Origin: an uncultured virus (IMG/VR IMGVR_UViG_2049941000_000100)
Lineage: Duplodnaviria > Heunggongvirae > Uroviricota > Caudoviricetes
Strand: one strand, 5' to 3'
IMG/VR virus record: IMGVR_UViG_2049941000_000100
DNA length: 20,000 bases
Below the pieces are notes generated by a model. It made no database searches. It saw only the letters and a list, made by a program, of their open reading frames with translations, and had not been told where the DNA came from. Positions 5,644 to 19,184 of the stretch are shown here, piece by piece. Positions within the stretch are counted from its first letter, which is position 1; each line of letters begins with the position of its first letter. The position numbers were made by a program, and so were the translations under genes.

Positions 5644-5672
5644 TTGAAAAGCTTTAAAATTTATGCTATAAT
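5644..5672 (+). promoter_or_regulatory. Sigma-A/70 promoter with extended -10
   Basis: TTGAAA-N17-TATAAT with TGn. Confidence 0.8.
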
Positions 5673-5688
5673 TATTATAGAATAAAAA

Positions 5689-5734
5689 AAGATATTTACG
5701 GCAAATATTTATGGCGCAAATAAAAAATATCTTG
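5689..5734 (+). promoter_or_regulatory. 5' leader element of the CAGCAAAU-helix family (copy A)
   Basis: AAGATATTT-ACGGCAAAT...AAATATCTT-G, ending just before the AAGGAG RBS of the Ro60-like gene. Confidence 0.6.
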
Positions 5735-5748
5735 TAGAAGGAGAATTT

Positions 5749-7236
5749 ATGAATAAGTTTACGAATGCGATTAAAGAAACTACTTCCCAGAAGCTGACGG
5801 AGAATGGAGCCTTTGCGTATAATACTACGGAAAGTGACCTTTTGGATTTGTTTGCGGAGATTGGTGCGTTGCGCCCGAGAACTGAGGCGGAAATTACTGA
5901 AAAGTTCGAGAGAGCTTTTAAGGAAGATGCGACTCTCGCTATGCGTATGGCTTTCTATGCGCGTGACGTAAGATTCGGCGGACTCGGTGAGCGCCGGACG
6001 TTCCGTATTATCCTTAAGTGGATTTGCGAAAATTATCCGGAACTTGCTACGGCTAATATTCCGAATATTACTACTTTCGGTCGTTTCGATGACCTCTATA
6101 CTTATGTTGGTACAGAGGCAGAAGAGGCTATGTGGAAGTATATGTATACGACTCTTACAAATGACTATGAGCGTATGCTTGAGGGTAAGCCGATTTCTCT
6201 TCTTGCTAAGTGGCTGAAGTCCATTAATACCTCTAGCCGTGAATCTCGTAAGCTCGCTCGCCTTACGCTTAAGAACCTCGGCTTCCATAACGAACGCCAT
6301 TATCGTAAGGTTTTGGCTCGTATGAGGGATTACCTTAATGTAGTTGAAAATCGTATGAGCGCGCAGGAGTGGGATAAGATTAACTATTCTCAGGTTCCGG
6401 CTTATGCGATTAAGAACTATGGTAGCGCTTTTGCAAAGCATGATTACGAGCGGTGGAACCAGTACCTTAAGGACTTGCAGAAGGGTACTACTAAGGTTAA
6501 TGCGAGTACTTTGTATCCGTATGATTTGGTTCACCAGTATATGGATAAGTACTATGGTGATAGCTATGGTCCTAATACTCTTACCGAAGCCCAGTGGAAG
6601 GCTCTACCGGATTATGTGGGTGATGGTGCTAATGTAATGGTTATGGCTGATGTTAGCGGTTCGATGATGGGGCGTCCGATGGAAACTTCGATTGGTCTTG
6701 CGGCGTACTTCGCGCAGCGTAACCATGGTCCGTTTGCGGGTCTTTTCCTTACGTTTACCGACATTCCTCGGTACATCCATGTGCGGAGTGATGATAAGCT
6801 CTATACTATGATTAATAAGATTCGTCAGAACGTCGGTTATAATACCAATTTGGATAAGGCTTTTAATCTTATTTTGGATACGGCTCTTAATAATCACGTT
6901 CCTCAAGAGGACTTACCTCGCGCGCTTGTAGTTGTCTCTGATATGGAGATTGACTCCTATGTGAGATACCATGGGTTAGATTTCGTTAAGACTTGGAGAG
7001 AGCGGTTTAAGGCGTATGGGTATGAGCTTCCTCAGCTTGTACTCTGGAATGTGGAGGCGCGCAACGATACGTTCCTTACGAAGATGGCGACTAAGGGAGT
7101 TACTTTCCTTTCTGGTCAGAGTGCATCTACGTTCAGAAGCCTTATCGATACGTTGAACTGTAAGAGTGCGTATGAGGCAATGGTGAAGGTTCTTATGAAC
7201 CCCGCCTATGACGTAGTAGTTACTAAGGTAGCATAA
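5749..7236 (+). CDS. Ro60/TROVE-like RNA-binding protein (DUF2828 family with C-terminal vWA domain)
   Basis: N-terminal TENGAFAY..LLDLF, FYARDVRFGGLGER, FGRFDDL, SLLAKWL, LYPYDLV; vWA MIDAS MADVSGSM...NTN...SDMEID, LVLWNV. No TAG codons. Confidence 0.85.
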   Translation: MNKFTNAIKETTSQKLTENGAFAYNTTESDLLDLFAEIGALRPRTEAEITEKFERAFKEDATLAMRMAFYARDVRFGGLGERRTFRIILKWICENYPELATANIPNITTFGRFDDLYTYVGTEAEEAMWKYMYTTLTNDYERMLEGKPISLLAKWLKSINTSSRESRKLARLTLKNLGFHNERHYRKVLARMRDYLNVVENRMSAQEWDKINYSQVPAYAIKNYGSAFAKHDYERWNQYLKDLQKGTTKVNASTLYPYDLVHQYMDKYYGDSYGPNTLTEAQWKALPDYVGDGANVMVMADVSGSMMGRPMETSIGLAAYFAQRNHGPFAGLFLTFTDIPRYIHVRSDDKLYTMINKIRQNVGYNTNLDKAFNLILDTALNNHVPQEDLPRALVVVSDMEIDSYVRYHGLDFVKTWRERFKAYGYELPQLVLWNVEARNDTFLTKMATKGVTFLSGQSASTFRSLIDTLNCKSAYEAMVKVLMNPAYDVVVTKVA

Positions 7237-8442: not shown

Positions 8443-8577
8443 GGGGGCGTGGTGGAATCGGCAGACACAACGGACTTAACGGTATGAGGCAAACCGTAGT
8501 AGGGTTATCACCTACCATATCGACCAAATCCGTTTTGCTTTACGCGAGTGTGGGTTCAAGTCCCACCGCCCCTACCA
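8443..8577 (+). tRNA. tRNA-Leu(TAA) with a 47-nt insert in the anticodon loop
   Basis: Acceptor GGGGGCG/CGCCCCT-A-CCA, stem ACGGA/TCCGT, long variable arm, GTTCAA T-loop. Removing 8480-8526 (or 8479-8525) restores the loop CT-TAA-AA. Confidence 0.85.
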
Positions 8578-8778: not shown

Positions 8779-9669
8779 TCTCATAGAAATAAACCATTTA
8801 ACTAGAATAGTAAAGATTATGACTCTCTTTTTTATAGGGCAATTCGTAAATATGGGTTAGAAAATTTTGACTTTGAAATAATAGAAGAATGTAAAAAAGA
8901 AGAATTAAATGAAAAAGAAAGATATTGGATAAAATTTTATCATACCTATGCTGGTGATATTGATAATAACGGTTACAATTTAACTTTGGGTGGAGAAACA
9001 AATGCAGTAACGCAGCAATAGATAGATAATGCAGAAGAAATAAAACAATTATTATTAACTACTCAAATAACTTAGGTAGAAATAGGTAAAAAATTTGGCT
9101 TAAGTCATGCTTCAGTTAGTTATATTAATAATGGAAGAGCTTGGCATGATGATAATTTAATTTATCCATTGAGAGAGCCCGTTGGAGTTACTCCTAAGGA
9201 AATTAGAGAAAAAGAATGTTTTTGTGTTGATTGTGGAAAATAGATAACTAATAAAGCTAAACGTTGTTATGAATGTAATTTATTATATTTAAAAGAAAAG
9301 AACCGAAAATAGCCTCCGGTCACAAGGGATGAATTAGAAAAACTTCTTTTACAAAATAATGGTAATTTTGTAGAAGTAGGTAAAGTTTTTAATTTAACAG
9401 ATAATGCTATTCGTAAATGGTGTGACAAGTTCGGTCTATCAAGACATTCTAATGATTATAAAGAGAAAAAAGAAAAACCTAAGAAATCTTTTGAAATTAA
9501 ANNNNNNNNNNATATTAACACCGGAGAAGAGTTAAAAGAATTTGCTAATTCAGAATAGGCAGGCGCGTATCTAGGAAAAACTTCTGGCACGCATATTCGA
9601 GAAGCGGCCGCAGGAAAAAGAAAAACTGCATATGGATATAAATGGAAATTTAAAAATGTGGCGGAGTAA
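8779..9669 (+). CDS. GIY-YIG homing endonuclease with Zn-finger/HTH/NUMOD1-like tail (N-terminus in gap)
   Basis: FYRAIRKYGLENFDFEIIEEC...LNEKERYWI...NGYNLTLGGE, CVDC..CYEC, RKTAYGYKWKF. Several TAG=Q. The stop lies inside tRNA-Val. Confidence 0.85.
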
Positions 9670-9734
9670 CTCAAAAGGAGAGTGCCATCTTTACACGGTG
9701 GAAGTTGAGATTGCAAAATTCTCCTCCGCTACCA
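9660..9734 (+). tRNA. tRNA-Val(TAC)
   Basis: GGCGGAG/CTCCGCT-A-CCA; CCATC-TT-TAC-AC-GGTGG; atypical T-loop. Confidence 0.8.
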
Positions 9735-9827
9735 GGGGAGCGAGAGAAGCTAGCTTATTAGTACCATATGCTACGATAAGTTGGTGAAACAATAGTCTAG
9801 ATGATATCTCGTAAGAACTCCCTACCA
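9735..9827 (+). ncRNA. Unclassified structured RNA ending in ACCA
   Basis: GGGGAG/CTCCCT terminal helix plus ACCA; CGAGA/TCTCG; GCTAGCTTAT/ATAAGTTGGT. Confidence 0.5.
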
Positions 9828-9828
9828 A

Positions 9829-9902
9829 TGGGACCTAGTATAAAGGTAGTACTTCTGTCTCCAAAACAGAAAGTCTCCGTTCGAGTCGGAGGGTTCCGGC
9901 CA
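9829..9902 (+). tRNA. tRNA-Trp(CCA)
   Basis: TCTGT-CT-CCA-AA-ACAGA; CTCCG-TTCGAGT-CGGAG; G-CCA end. Confidence 0.9.
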
Positions 9903-9910
9903 TTAATTTT

Positions 9911-10020
9911 TAGACGCGTGAACAGCGAATTTAGGATGAATAGCTTAACGGTTTAAGCATCTATTATTTAATAGAAGACTGTCGGTTCAAATCCGGCTTT
10001 ACCCGCACATTTGCGTCTAG
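9911..10020 (+). ncRNA. Y-like RNA, copy B (tRNA mimic inside a closing helix)
   Basis: TAGACGC..ACAGCGAAT-[D arm, 4-nt-loop hairpin, T arm GTCGG-TTCAAAT-CCGGC]-GCGTCTAG. Confidence 0.7.
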
Positions 10021-10499: not shown

Positions 10500-10501
10500 T
10501 T

Positions 10502-10664
10502 GGGAATGTAGCTCAGCCCGGTAGAGCCCGCGCCTGTAGTAAATTGGTGTAATAGCGCACATTGGGGCCGGTGATTCGTTCACAGTCCCGAAGGAACAAG
10601 TGCAATTCTTGTATTTACTTCCATAAGCGCGTTGTCGTAGGATCGAAGCCTACCGTTCCCGCCA
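10502..10664 (+). tRNA. tRNA-CAT (Met or Ile2) with an 86-nt tRNA-shaped insert after U33
   Basis: GGGAATG/CGTTCCC-G-CCA; CGCGC-CT-[10536-10621]-CAT-AA-GCGCG. Confidence 0.8.
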
Positions 10665-10732
10665 TAGGGCGCTCGCATTTATTGGTCTCTTTGATTTGCG
10701 CCCATTCATAAAAGAGCAAATGTAGACCACAA

Positions 10733-10857
10733 TAGATACGTACAGCAAATATATTCATTCGATCTGCAAAATCGCGTGTCGTGGGTTCAAATCCCATCGG
10801 AACTTTCGAGTTCTGTAACTCAGTCTGGTAGAGTAGTATATGAAAAAACGTATCTAG
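10733..10857 (+). ncRNA. Y-like RNA, copy C (circularly permuted tRNA, YrlA-like)
   Basis: TAGATACGT-ACAGCAAAT...anticodon-like arm, T arm, UUCG-capped acceptor stem, D arm...ACGTATCTAG. Confidence 0.8.
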
Positions 10858-12515: not shown

Positions 12516-12573
12516 AAATTTTTAAAAATGGTCCAAATTTTTATACTCTTTTTATTANNNNNNNNNNTTTTTT

Positions 12574-13292
12574 ATGATAGGAATTTATAAAATAGAGAAC
12601 TTAGTAAATCATAAATTATATGTTGGGCAAAGTATTGACATAGAAGAAAGATATAAATAGCATATTTATAAAGCTTTTAATAATAATGAACGAGCATACA
12701 ATTCAGCAATTCACCAAGCTTTTAGAAAATATGGAATCGAAAATTTTAAATTAGAAGTGATTGAATAGTGTAATATTGATGAATTAGATGAAAAAGAGAT
12801 ATATTGGATTAAATAGTTAGATACTATTTCTCCTAATGGATATAATATATCATTAGGCGGCCAATTTAATAAAGCTTCTAATAAAAGATTTTGTCCCTTA
12901 TGCGGTGAAGTTATGACTAAAGGAGCAGATTTGTGCTTAAATTGCTATTTAAAAGAAAAGTCTAAACATCTACCAAGCGCTGAAGAATTAAAAGAAAAAT
13001 TAATAGAATATAATGGTAATTTTACTCAAGTTGGTAAATTATATGGCGTAATAGATAATTCAGTTAGAAAGTGGTGTAAAAAATACGGTATGCCGTATCA
13101 TAGTAGCGATTATAAAGTAAAGCCACAAAAAAAACCAAATAAAATTCCAGTAGATTAGTTAGATCCAAATACCGGAGATATAATCCAAACTTTTGAAAGT
13201 GCTAATGCTGCTGCGCACTCTTTGGGGAAAAACCGTGGTAGTCATATAACAGAAGCATGTCAAGGAAAATTTAATATTATTTATGGATATAG
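12574..13292 (+). CDS. GIY-YIG homing endonuclease (3' end in gap; 4 TAG)
   Basis: MIGIYKIENLVNHKLYVGQSIDIEERYKQH...RKYGIENF...NGYN, CPLC..CLNC, HTH and NUMOD1-like tail. Paralogous to 8779-9669. Confidence 0.9.
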
Positions 13293-14084: not shown

Positions 14085-14470
14085 AGTCTGCGGGACTATA
14101 AGCCGCTACCAGGACTATAAGAAATTATAGGTTGGTACTTCCTTAGATAAGATAATAAACTAAGGCGGTCGCGTCGAAACAGCGTATAGTATGGGTGAGC
14201 TTATTTAACTATTTTGGGAACGATTAATAGTTAGAATTATCCGGCAAAACTACTTAGCCCATAATAAGTAGACCCGTTTAAAGAGAAAGGATAATTCCGT
14301 TTTGTACGCAGAGGATTTTATCGTATTAAACCAAGGAGTGGATAGGCGGTAAAAACGCGGTAAGGAGTGGCTGATAGACCAACTTATGGAAGTGTTGAGG
14401 TTTCAGAGGTAGGGAAGATTGGTAATTTCTTTCTGCGTAAAAAATGTATGTAAAGCGACAGGACGCTTTA
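14085..14470 (+). ncRNA. Candidate ~385-nt structured ncRNA
   Basis: No credible ORF; helices CCTTAG/CTAAGG, TAACTATT/AATAGTTA, GAATTATCC/GGATAATTC, TACGCAGA/TCTGCGTA and TAAAGCG/CGCTTTA. Confidence 0.5.
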
Positions 14471-15433: not shown

Positions 15434-15462
15434 TTGAAAGTTTCTAAAATTTATGGTATAAT
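15434..15462 (+). promoter_or_regulatory. Sigma-A/70 promoter driving the long non-coding region
   Basis: TTGAAA-N17-TATAAT with TGn. Confidence 0.8.
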
Positions 15463-15469
15463 ATTTATA

Positions 15470-16634
15470 GAGAGTGAGAGAGAAAGTAAAAACTTTATTC
15501 CTTTCAATTTACTTTCTCTCTCGAAGCTCAAAGCTTAATACAGGTAGATAAGCAAGCAAGGTGCGGCTATCTACACGGTCCCAACTCCGTAAAGGTTAGA
15601 GTGACAACTAATCGAAGTAGAGGGAGCTTAAAGAGCCAGAGCAACGGCTAGGCAAGATACCATTGGCCAAGGTTGAGCCTTATGACGACCGCCCAAATCC
15701 GAGGTAGCTACTCGGCTGAACATATCGGGAATAGAATTGTGGGTCCCGTCTAAATCTTTTAAGTAGAATGGAAAAAGTTTACTACTAGAATCCAGCTTCT
15801 CCATAGGAACTGCAATAGATTCCTTAAAGGATTGGAGTAAGTAGAGTAGATTACTAAGGAATCGGACTATGCACTTTAGTAGTTGAATTAGAATTAGTCG
15901 TAGTTAGGTATTAACTAGAGTTAGCCTTACTTCTATTGCTAAAATAACTTAGCGGCCCGCTCCGTCAATGCGGCGCGCCCTGTGCGATAAATAGGGTGAC
16001 TAGGGTTCAAATAGTAAACACCCGCGTTTTAAGTAGGGAATTAGCGTATAAGAAATAAACCTACCGCTTGCCCATGGCGAAGCACGGGCTGCGCAGGATG
16101 AAGGATGGCCTGTGAGTTTTAGAAACTTCGTATAATAAAGTTTCTCGTGAGCGTCGCCGCCTCACGTTAAAAAACCGACTAGAATAGGTGAGGGATGCCT
16201 ATNNNNNNNNNNTAGTAGGCAATTAACGTATAAGAAATAAACCTACCGCGTGCTCTTGGCGGAAGCAACGAGCTGCACAGGAGGAGGGATGGCCTGTGAG
16301 TTTTAGAAACTTTGTATAATAAAGTTTCTCGTGAGTGTCGCCGCCTCACGTTAAAAAACCGACTAGAATAGGTGAGGGATGCCTATTGACTTTCAAGGAT
16401 GTGGTACGCGTTAGTCCGAAGTTCAAGATGAACTTAGAGGCCGTTCTTCTTAGGACGACCTCAGATTATGGGTAAGTACTTCTATAAGGAATAGATAGTA
16501 TCTCGGAAGCTGGCCAGGGATGTGGCAATGTAAGTCTTCCCTCCAGGACTGCTGGATGACCCGAATAAGTTTGGGAAAGTTCTTTGATAAAAACTTTCTA
16601 CCTTTTAAGGACTTTGGGTTACATAAGTCCTTTT
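15470..16634 (+). ncRNA. Candidate ~1.1-kb structured ncRNA (or cluster of RNAs)
   Basis: Bounded by a promoter and a terminator-like hairpin, GC-richer than typical spacers, no long ORF in the track, many helices. Confidence 0.55.
16032..16386 (+). repeat. Imperfect tandem duplication of an ~170-nt structured unit
   Basis: Copies at 16032-16202 and 16214-16386, separated by a 10-N gap. Confidence 0.8.
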
Positions 16635-16720
16635 ATAATTGAATTAACCACCCTCCATCTCACTTTCCTTTCTTTTCCGGTCATTTACCTAACATATCGG
16701 TTAATTCAATTATAAAAGGA
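16628..16720. repeat. 22-bp perfect inverted repeat with a 49-nt pyrimidine-rich loop
   Basis: TCCTTTTATAATTGAATTAACC ... GGTTAATTCAATTATAAAAGGA. Confidence 0.85.
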
Positions 16721-16745
16721 TTTAGGAATCCTTTAAGGAGATTAT

Positions 16746-17933
16746 ATGGCAGGTACTATTTCAAGAGGCATTAAAGCCCCAATTATTCGAGAAGGCGACA
16801 ACATAGCAGAAATTGTAGTTAATTCGGTTTTGAAGGCTATGGAAGAAGATAATTTCCAGTTGCATGAAAGAGATATTATAGCAGTTACGGAATCCGTAGT
16901 TGCGCGCGCAGATGGAAATTATTGCACGGTAGACGATATAGCAAAAGATATAAGATTTAAGTTTGGAGATAACGCAACTATTGGAGTTTTATTTCCTATT
17001 CTTAGTCGAAATAGGTTTGCTATTTGTTTGAAGGGTATAGCGCGCGGCGCAAAAAAGGTAGTAGTTCAGCTATCGTGCCCTGCAGATGAGGTTGGTAATC
17101 ATCTTATAGATGAAGATTTATTTGAAAAGATGGTTCCAAATCCAACAGTTAATTTGTTCCATGAAGATACATTTGAGCAATTATTTGGTAAACCAGTTCA
17201 TCCTTTTACCGGCATAAATTATGTTGATTATTATAAGGAAATAATTGAGGCTGAGGGTGCCGAAGCGGAAATTATATTTGGTAATAGACCTACAGATATA
17301 ATTTGGTATGCGCCGGACGTCATTTGTTGTAGTATTCATAATAGGGATAGCGTCGTAGCAAAGCTTAAAGCAGGTGGCGCGCATAGGGCCCTTACTTTAT
17401 GCGATATTATGAATAACTCTCATTCTATGAATGGCGGCTGTAATGAGCAGTACGGTCTTTTAGGGAGTAATAAAGCGAGCGAAGAAAAGCTGAAGTTATT
17501 TCCTAGGAACGCGCAAGAAGTTGTCAATGAAATTCAAACTTTGTTTTGGATGAATACTGGAATAAAGATTGAAGCGATGGTCTATGGCGATGGCGCATTT
17601 AAAGACCCAGTTGGTAAGATTTGGGAACTTGCGGACCCCGTAGTAAGTCCTGCGTATACTAAAGGACTTGAGGGTTTACCGAATGAGGTTAAAATTAAGT
17701 ATCTGGCTGATAATGACTTTAAGGACCTTAATGGCGAAAAACTAAATGAAGCGATTCGCGCGAGTATACGTGAGAAAGATAAGGCTCTTAAAGGAAAAAT
17801 GGTTTCTGAAGGTACTACTCCGCGCCGATTAACGGATTTAATTGGGTCATTGTGTGACCTTACGAGCGGAAGCGGCGACAAGGGTACGCCCATAGTAGTA
17901 ATTCAAAACTATTTTAATAACTACGCCGATTAA
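16746..17933 (+). CDS. Coenzyme F420-0:gamma-glutamyl ligase (CofE)-like family protein, long Firmicutes type
   Basis: GTISRGIKAPIIREGD, AVTESVVARA, YGDGAFKDPVGKIWELADP, GTTPRRLTDLIGSLCDLTSGSGDKGTPIVVIQ; AAGGAG RBS; no TAG. Confidence 0.85.
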   Translation: MAGTISRGIKAPIIREGDNIAEIVVNSVLKAMEEDNFQLHERDIIAVTESVVARADGNYCTVDDIAKDIRFKFGDNATIGVLFPILSRNRFAICLKGIARGAKKVVVQLSCPADEVGNHLIDEDLFEKMVPNPTVNLFHEDTFEQLFGKPVHPFTGINYVDYYKEIIEAEGAEAEIIFGNRPTDIIWYAPDVICCSIHNRDSVVAKLKAGGAHRALTLCDIMNNSHSMNGGCNEQYGLLGSNKASEEKLKLFPRNAQEVVNEIQTLFWMNTGIKIEAMVYGDGAFKDPVGKIWELADPVVSPAYTKGLEGLPNEVKIKYLADNDFKDLNGEKLNEAIRASIREKDKALKGKMVSEGTTPRRLTDLIGSLCDLTSGSGDKGTPIVVIQNYFNNYAD

Positions 17934-18036: not shown

Positions 18037-18076
18037 GTTTATATCGCAGAGTAGAGCAACGATATACTAAAATTTT

Positions 18077-18150
18077 TAGACGCATACAGCAAATATAAGA
18101 TATAGACGAACATATTATTTTTTTCTTGTATCTTCAGCACTCGCGTCTAG
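18077..18150 (+). ncRNA. Y-like RNA, copy D
   Basis: TAGACGC-AT-ACAGCAAAT-[AAGATATAG/TTGTATCTT hairpin]-GCGTCTAG. Confidence 0.7.
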
Positions 18151-18883: not shown

Positions 18884-18955
18884 TAGGCTTGCGCAGCAAA
18901 TATAACTCACAGTGCATTTAGTTATTATTGTCCAGACTGTACGGACAGAGCCTTG
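18884..18955 (+). ncRNA. Y-like RNA, copy E
   Basis: TAGGCTT-GC-GCAGCAAAT-[two hairpins]-GAGCCTTG. Confidence 0.65.
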
Positions 18956-18974: not shown

Positions 18975-19038
18975 TAAGACCCACCCAGCAAAGATTAAAA
19001 GAATTCTGTATTGGTAACTGAACTCATGAAGGGTCTTG
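18975..19038 (+). ncRNA. Y-like RNA, copy F
   Basis: TAAGACCC-AC-CCAGCAAA...GGGTCTTG. Confidence 0.65.
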
Positions 19039-19047
19039 AAAAGTTTA

Positions 19048-19150
19048 TAAGGCGCATCCAGCAAATTTTTATTGCAAATAGGTTAATAATTTCATTTCTG
19101 ATCGAAATTTAGCGGTTCAAGTCCGCATTATAAATTAATGCCGCGCCTTG
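19048..19150 (+). ncRNA. Y-like RNA, copy G (contains a T arm)
   Basis: TAAGGCGC-AT-CCAGCAAAT...GCGG-TTCAAGT-CCGC...GCGCCTTG. Confidence 0.7.
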
Positions 19151-19156
19151 GAAGTT

Positions 19157-19184
19157 TAGACTACGAAAGTAGTCTATTTTTTTT
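19157..19184 (+). terminator. Rho-independent terminator closing the RNA cluster
   Basis: TAGACTAC-GAAA-GTAGTCTA followed by a T8 run. Confidence 0.9.

Follow-up and report, generated by a model that had tools for sequence, protein, structure and literature searches.

Bacterial Ro60 (Rsr) and its RNAs YrlA and YrlB (Chen et al. 2014, PMC4201824; Rfam RF02553) are among the closest known counterparts of the locus analysed here, which likewise pairs a protein of Ro60 fold with RNAs that are closed by a terminal helix, carry a short conserved motif on its 5' side, in some cases contain a tRNA-like domain (T, acceptor-like and D parts in the RNA at position 10732 of our sequence) and often adjoin the protein gene. 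The core of the RNAs differs, being RCAGCAA here and GNCGAAN0-1G in YrlA, and the protein, unlike Rsr, belongs to DUF2828/DUF7788. Autoregulation is not mentioned in the available text of that report, and none of the 22 phages in its Table S2 is among the DUF2828 phages examined here. A phage-encoded Ro60 fold is also found in the Thermus phage phiLo, whose Ro60 binds RNAs (Yrl1/Yrl2) encoded upstream of its gene (Hu et al. 2025, PMC12135203). Unlike the RNAs considered here, those of phiLo carry a CGAA motif and figure in the available text as RNAs acting in trans to scaffold PNPase; its main text, as available, uses neither 'autoregul' nor 'translation', and the phiLo protein is 17% identical to the one in our sequence. 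In the felixounavirus Bas63, the Ro60-like protein gp130 is encoded beside a tRNA cluster and is reported to counter the Ppl defence system, and its authors suspect Y RNAs there; the available part of the report describes no RNA motif or leader (bioRxiv 10.1101/2024.10.10.617714). Felixounavirus homologues are 33% identical to our protein, gp130 itself lying outside the comparison, and their leader holds a degenerate copy of the element described below at most. Judged from the papers listed, and with supplementary motif catalogues outside its scope, the literature searched offered nothing on a DUF2828 RNA partner, on such an RNA family or on Ro60 autoregulation, and the term 'DUF2828' led to unrelated papers only.

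Translational autorepression by RNA mimicry is familiar from the ribosomal-protein operons (L1, S8, S15, L20) and from E. coli threonyl-tRNA synthetase, where the leader imitates the main RNA ligand at lower affinity and blocks initiation once that ligand is saturated. The system considered here would differ from ribosomal-protein feedback in that a Ro60-family ring would be the regulator and predicted phage or bacterial tRNA-mimic RNAs the ligands, with a mechanism that we infer. By analogy with both kinds of system, it would most likely work as a Ro60-Y RNA pair to which ribosomal-protein-style feedback has been added.

The stretch of DNA that was analysed, hereafter the window, is 20,000 nt long and resembles part of a tRNA-rich phage genome, with 11 tRNA genes called by ARAGORN, HNH genes, an RNase H and a holin-like gene. 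Several of its other features deserve a record. At 8443-8574, a tRNA-like gene that ARAGORN did not call (44 bits in Rfam) is interrupted in its anticodon region by a long insertion, and at 10501-10660 tRNA-like 5' and 3' halves (the start of a D-arm and the end of a T-arm) are separated by a long insert, with no call from ARAGORN or Rfam. Two related endonuclease-like frames, at 8800-9650 and 12570-13290, are broken by TAG codons; in-frame TAG occurs in other frames of the window too. These may be broken genes or reflect stop-codon recoding. A tandem duplication of about 180 nt (16032-16202 and 16214-16386, 90-95% identical), possibly a structured RNA, lies in a gene-poor stretch downstream of a promoter at 15434, and a gene of the F420-0:gamma-glutamyl ligase family (16746-17933), preceded by an inverted repeat at 16617-16731, stands within the tRNA cluster.

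The gene of interest (5749..7236, + strand) encodes a 495-aa protein whose Pfam matches are DUF2828, DUF7788 and VWA_2 only, with no sequence match to TROVE, and which falls in PHROG 850, annotated 'RNA-binding protein'. A sequence search of the PDB with the DUF2828 protein found no solved Ro60 at E<=1. An AlphaFold2 model built from 42 homologues (pLDDT 82) shows a HEAT-repeat ring closed by a vWA domain, and every Foldseek match listed for it with E<=0.001 is a Ro60 structure (TM 0.43-0.60), headed by the phiLo Ro60 (phiRo60; 9kop, E 6e-8). The name 'Ro60-like', given to the gene in an earlier note made from the sequence, is therefore borne out by the fold. The MIDAS residues D301, S303 and S305 of the vWA domain are invariant in the 42 homologues, as is D398. 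Of 50,697 named phage records, 709 contain homologues of this protein; one homologue of 408 aa (P0018) has an extra PF01541 domain, possibly a homing-endonuclease insertion.

Upstream of this gene lies a sigma-70-type promoter (5644..5672, + strand; TTGAAA-17-TG-TATAAT), which matches the consensus at 11 of 12 positions and from which transcription would start near 5679-5680. It is one of five such sites in the window, the near-identical extended -10 promoters at 5644, 10234, 13308, 15047 and 15434, which have a downstream word ATAGAA or ATAGAG in common. The earlier note had placed a helix with an adjacent core between this promoter and the Shine-Dalgarno (SD) sequence AAGGAG, arranged as in six free-standing RNAs, and our analysis confirms it: a 47-nt element (5688..5734, + strand) has a 9-bp helix (5689-5697 with 5725-5733, all nine pairs Watson-Crick), a core ACGGCAA at 5698-5704 (A5698 followed by CGGCAAA, 5699-5705) and a terminal UG at 5733-5734. 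The SD (5738..5743, + strand) begins 3 nt past the terminal G5734, and the ATG start codon is at 5749. The SD takes no part in the helix, which stops 3 nt short of it, and no SD-pairing hairpin follows the element in the window. A second loop word, GGCGCAA (5714..5720, + strand), is common to the two closest viral relatives that retain the leader (L002 and L003); the window and L002 could also form an alternative local hairpin over 5690-5709, which L003 does not keep.

Against shuffled sequences, the folding of the leader is unremarkable (z -0.86 for the leader, -1.72 for the bare element), and a loose element scanner found 9 elements on the + strand of the real window against 1-6 per shuffled window; the leader stands above chance because of its position and its covariation in homologues, not because of its own folding. 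Its helix is the weakest in the window, at -6.7 kcal/mol compared with -10.2 to -11.9 for the five free copies that were scored, with computed pairing probabilities of 0.42-0.70, and the leader copy is the only one in the window with CGGCAA and has no T-arm. The outer pairs of the helix lie at -24 to -16, which, for a ribosome footprint of the usual size, reaches into the footprint; opening the footprint to -18 costs about 2.2 kcal/mol more than opening it to -12. Such marginal computed pairing is as expected of a switch that would be tipped by a protein.

Within the 20,000 nt of the window, to which the count applies, six free-standing copies built on the same helix, core and 3' UG or AG lie 4.2-13.3 kb from the start codon, all on the + strand. 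One (9910..10020) encloses a tRNA-like domain (9934-10006) in the order D, anticodon, T; another (10732..10857) has a T-arm, a closed acceptor-like stem and a D-like arm, which is the YrlA-type order, and gives a weak match to RF02553 at 10773-10842 (36.5 bits, the gathering threshold being 69). A third, at 18076..18150, stands amid tRNA genes and has no T-arm, and the remaining three are in tandem: about 18885..18955, which the scanners did not score and which we placed from sequence and fold, 18975..19038, and 19048..19150, which has a T-arm-like hairpin and is followed by a terminator-like hairpin at 19157-19176. A T-arm is thus present in three of the six free copies and absent from the leader copy. 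One trait of Y RNAs in the broad sense, that each genome has at least one RNA with a tRNA-like domain, is therefore present in the window. The YrlA motif GNCGAAN0-1G occurs in 0/91 leader copies and 0/7 window copies; Rfam has no family that covers the element, either in the window or in 7 further loci, where it returned tRNA matches only, and its YrlA model does not match the leader copy. The leader copy measures 47 nt, discrete Y RNAs being 80-130 nt long; the contigs of the small share of public RNA runs that was searched did not cover it. The term 'Y-like' used in the earlier note holds for resemblance and fails for the YrlA motif, and from its sequence the element is best called Y-like, not YrlA. 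One further structure, at 14234-14297, has an 8-9 bp helix with CGGCAA directly 3' of its 5' arm, an inner hairpin and a fold z of -3.5; we excluded it from the family since it has neither the 3' UG nor the usual register.

Leaders of homologous genes were collected in two sets. The near set comprised 160 loci, the best 80 of 372 viral and the best 80 of 199 cellular ones; once the window was included, a start was called in 159, upstream DNA was sufficient and the protein nearly complete in 156, and filtering at <85% identity left 92 loci. The distant set, drawn from named phage records (23) and from two additional viral scans, comprised 182 loci, of which 175 were usable and 105 non-redundant. 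With a first scanner for helix plus core, an element ends <=40 nt from the start codon in 44/92 near loci, compared with 2/92 reverse complements, 11/920 shuffled leaders and 8/481 other SD-bearing ORFs of the same loci. With a second scanner, broadened after the distant leaders had been seen, 50/92 near and 41/105 distant loci have an element ending -12 to 50 nt from the start codon, against 10/504 and 2/110 other SD-bearing ORFs, respectively. The earlier note had proposed looking for a conserved helix and core in the leaders of DUF2828 homologues, and over both sets the second scanner finds them in 91/197 non-redundant loci and before 12/614 other genes. A regulon of other genes bearing the element is rejected on the same ORF counts, which are near the shuffle rate. 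Two other measures were discarded: the bare core word turns up so often across whole phage genomes that it carries no information, and a Fitch count (41 leader changes on 197 tips) was left unused, being inflated by scanner misses.

Leader copies are present in the named phages phiM12 (Sinorhizobium), XaC1 (Xanthomonas), BF (Serratia), 7t3 (Salmonella), Fnu1 (Fusobacterium), LAh_6 (Aeromonas), CP30A (Campylobacter), and V09 and 1.081.O (Vibrio), whose proteins are about 30-35% identical to that of the window. A leader copy was not scored in the remaining 106/197 loci, some of which are scanner misses. Among these, EFDG1, two Staphylococcus phages, Mycobacterium phage Calm and Klebsiella phi1 have copies elsewhere, and in EFDG1 the gene has its own promoter after a terminator; Cronobacter S13, Aeh1, Milchi and two Ounavirinae also gave no score, and the last copy stops 74 nt upstream in LMSP-25 and 87 nt upstream in PJN02. 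In a 65%-identical homologue (L001), another reading frame (9700-10001) stops just before the SD and no leader copy lies within 1 kb; an insertion may have displaced the leader there. RNA ligase genes occur near the homologue in Listeria phage LMSP-25 (L162:6850-8061) and Serratia phage BF (L171:319-1578), an arrangement that resembles RNA-repair neighbourhoods.

The helix is preserved by covariation. When 16 promoter-proximal viral leaders, picked by hand, were aligned without regard to structure, both arms fell into register in 15/16; 96.7% of cells are paired, and two-sided changes occur in 6/8 pairs. The pairing score was reached by 0/500 shuffles, controls slid along the alignment pair in 32-54% of cells, and RNAalifold gave the same leader helix unaided. 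The homologous leaders are related, and therefore these counts are not independent events. Over the 91 leader copies, the consensus has a 5' arm of about 11 nt, the core CAGCAA in 63/91 and a 3' UG in 78/91, or else AG.

The geometry of the leader copies was compared with that of other copies. The distance from the terminal G to the SD is -2 to +5 nt in 30/40 distant and -3 to +5 nt in 22/50 near leaders, while only 3/19 and 16/56 spacers between tandem elements and 8/37 tRNA-to-SD gaps are <=5 nt, and copies outside the leader are followed by another SD and ORF in 4/150 and 2/79 cases. In the distant phages, the leader copy is shorter than copies at the same locus in 28/32, its helix is weaker in 17/22, and its core departs from the consensus in 17/41 as against 15/103 of the others. 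In the near set it is neither shorter (19/39) nor weaker (20/38), its core is no more degenerate than the others (11/50 vs 35/133) and a T-arm is found in 11/50 leader copies; the length, strength and core of the near-set copies rule out that the leader copy is specialised everywhere. Solitary leader copies number 37/91, of which 23 are <=50 nt. Among the distant loci, a leader copy is present in 40/63 that have an SD and in 1/42 that have none. A clade of 42 tips (support 0.98), 40 of them with SD-less leaders, has no leader copy, and it is to be counted as one evolutionary event; SD-less leaders, which from their promoters we take to be of Bacteroidota type, have a non-coding copy within the 3 kb fetched in 16/42 distant loci, downstream of the gene in 15.

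In some phages the element takes in the start of the gene itself. In the KVP40-like Vibrio phages V09 and 1.081.O, the region of the start codon itself forms the 3' arm (GACATT pairs with AATGTC) and the loop contains the SD, and such a copy therefore could not be excised without destroying the start of the gene; the pair yields no covariation because the phages are close relatives (77% protein identity) with identical arms. In Vibrio phage D479, a helix predicted by eye and unscored ends between SD and start codon. A second hairpin that pairs with the SD follows the element in 8/35 longer-gap leaders, mostly of one viral clade plus Fnu1; in that clade (L006, L008, L010, L015, L018, L019, L021, L030) the hairpin is clade-specific, varies in sequence and pairs with the 5' part of the SD. 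A general SD-pairing hairpin is rejected, being absent from 27/35 longer-gap leaders.

The best reading of these sequences, and a probable one, is that the leader mimics the RNA partners of the protein and so mediates translational autorepression. The DUF2828 Ro60-like protein would bind a helix closed by the 3' UG together with the adjacent single-stranded RCAGCAA core, and the free-standing, tRNA-mimicking RNAs, with strong sites, would take it up before anything else. Its own 5' leader would be a stripped and weaker copy of these RNAs with its 3' end at the edge of the ribosome landing site. Left unbound, the A-U-rich leader helix would breathe and translation would start; with the protein in excess over its RNA partners, it would be bound and stabilised, 30S loading would be blocked, and protein output would thus track the RNA pool. 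Binding, the ranking of affinities and repression are steps that we infer. Autoregulation had been the conclusion drawn in the earlier note from the window's own leader, and it gains from the occurrence of the element in homologous leaders far above controls and from a ligand-like site, conserved in homologues, within the gene's own translation initiation region, with features that fit a cis-acting site: solitary, promoter-proximal, short, weak, and abutting or enclosing the SD or the start codon. It loses from the loci in which no leader copy was scored and from the Firmicute arrays, where the last copy is ordinary. The 'Ro-like' protein of cluster L (LeBron gp53) is cytotoxic when overexpressed, according to the available text of PMC13148394, and this toxicity would be a possible reason to cap free protein.

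The leader copy could instead be one more co-transcribed Y-like RNA gene, released by processing and giving no feedback, in which case its closeness to the SD would reflect compact operons; tRNAs, too, sometimes stand <=5 nt from an SD (8/37). We consider this unlikely overall, though a serious candidate, since in M. smegmatis a single precursor encoded upstream of rsr gives rise to both YrlA and YrlB (PMC4201824, available text), the phiLo Yrl1/Yrl2 are also upstream of their gene (PMC12135203, available text), and most cellular loci are tandem arrays that run up to the gene and end in a full-sized last copy, often with a T-arm. In the Firmicute arrays, whose last copy is neither shorter nor weaker, a plain co-transcribed RNA explains the data equally well. 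It fails, however, on the pairing of the start codon or SD region in V09, 1.081.O and D479, on the shorter, weaker and degenerate leader copies of the distant phages, and on a solitary copy of 34-47 nt that is kept while full RNAs lie kilobases off, characterised Y RNAs being 80-130 nt long in the available text of PMC4201824. Autorepression and processing may both be valid, in different lineages: an ancestral array may have had a last member that doubled as operator, and reduction may have left nothing but an operator in lineages whose RNAs moved to the tRNA cluster.

The leader might also act in cis without being a repressor, by protecting the mRNA 5' end, recruiting a nuclease or handing newly made protein over to RNA of the same transcript. 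The element does start about 15 nt past the -10 box in the window, that is at the mRNA 5' end, and 10-15 nt past it in 9/25 near-set viral leaders, and Ro60-Y RNA complexes engage PNPase (PMC4201824 and PMC12135203, available texts). We hold such a role to be improbable, however, since stability calls for neither a fixed gap of -2 to +5 nt to the SD nor pairing with the start codon, and the leader copy of an array does not stand at the 5' end. That the inverted repeat works as DNA, as a repressor operator, or as a transcription terminator or attenuator would suit its place just downstream of a strong promoter, but is very improbable indeed: the spacing of the arms ranges from about 8 to >100 nt, G-U pairs and compensatory changes preserve the helix, the core is specific to one strand (the 2/92 on the reverse strand given above), and no terminator-like site was called at the leader.

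Returning to autorepression, we consider the chances slightly better than even that DUF2828 is a large Ro60 subfamily with its own, hitherto undescribed family of Y-like tRNA-mimic RNAs and a gene kept in balance by a degenerate leader site. The proposed RNA family, defined by the helix, RCAGCAA and the 3' UG, would be found in gut Firmicute genomes as well as in phages of Firmicutes, Proteobacteria and Fusobacteria. With the motif, the likely RNA partners and a minimal putative binding site of 34-47 nt can be named. If the leader is an operator, free protein could be measured and the RNAs ranked with a simple reporter, which could also be used to test titration by damaged tRNAs or other RNAs. 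If this reading is true, it would provide the first autoregulated Ro60 together with a ready-made in vivo read-out of free protein, and would make the role of phage Ro60-Y RNA particles directly testable.
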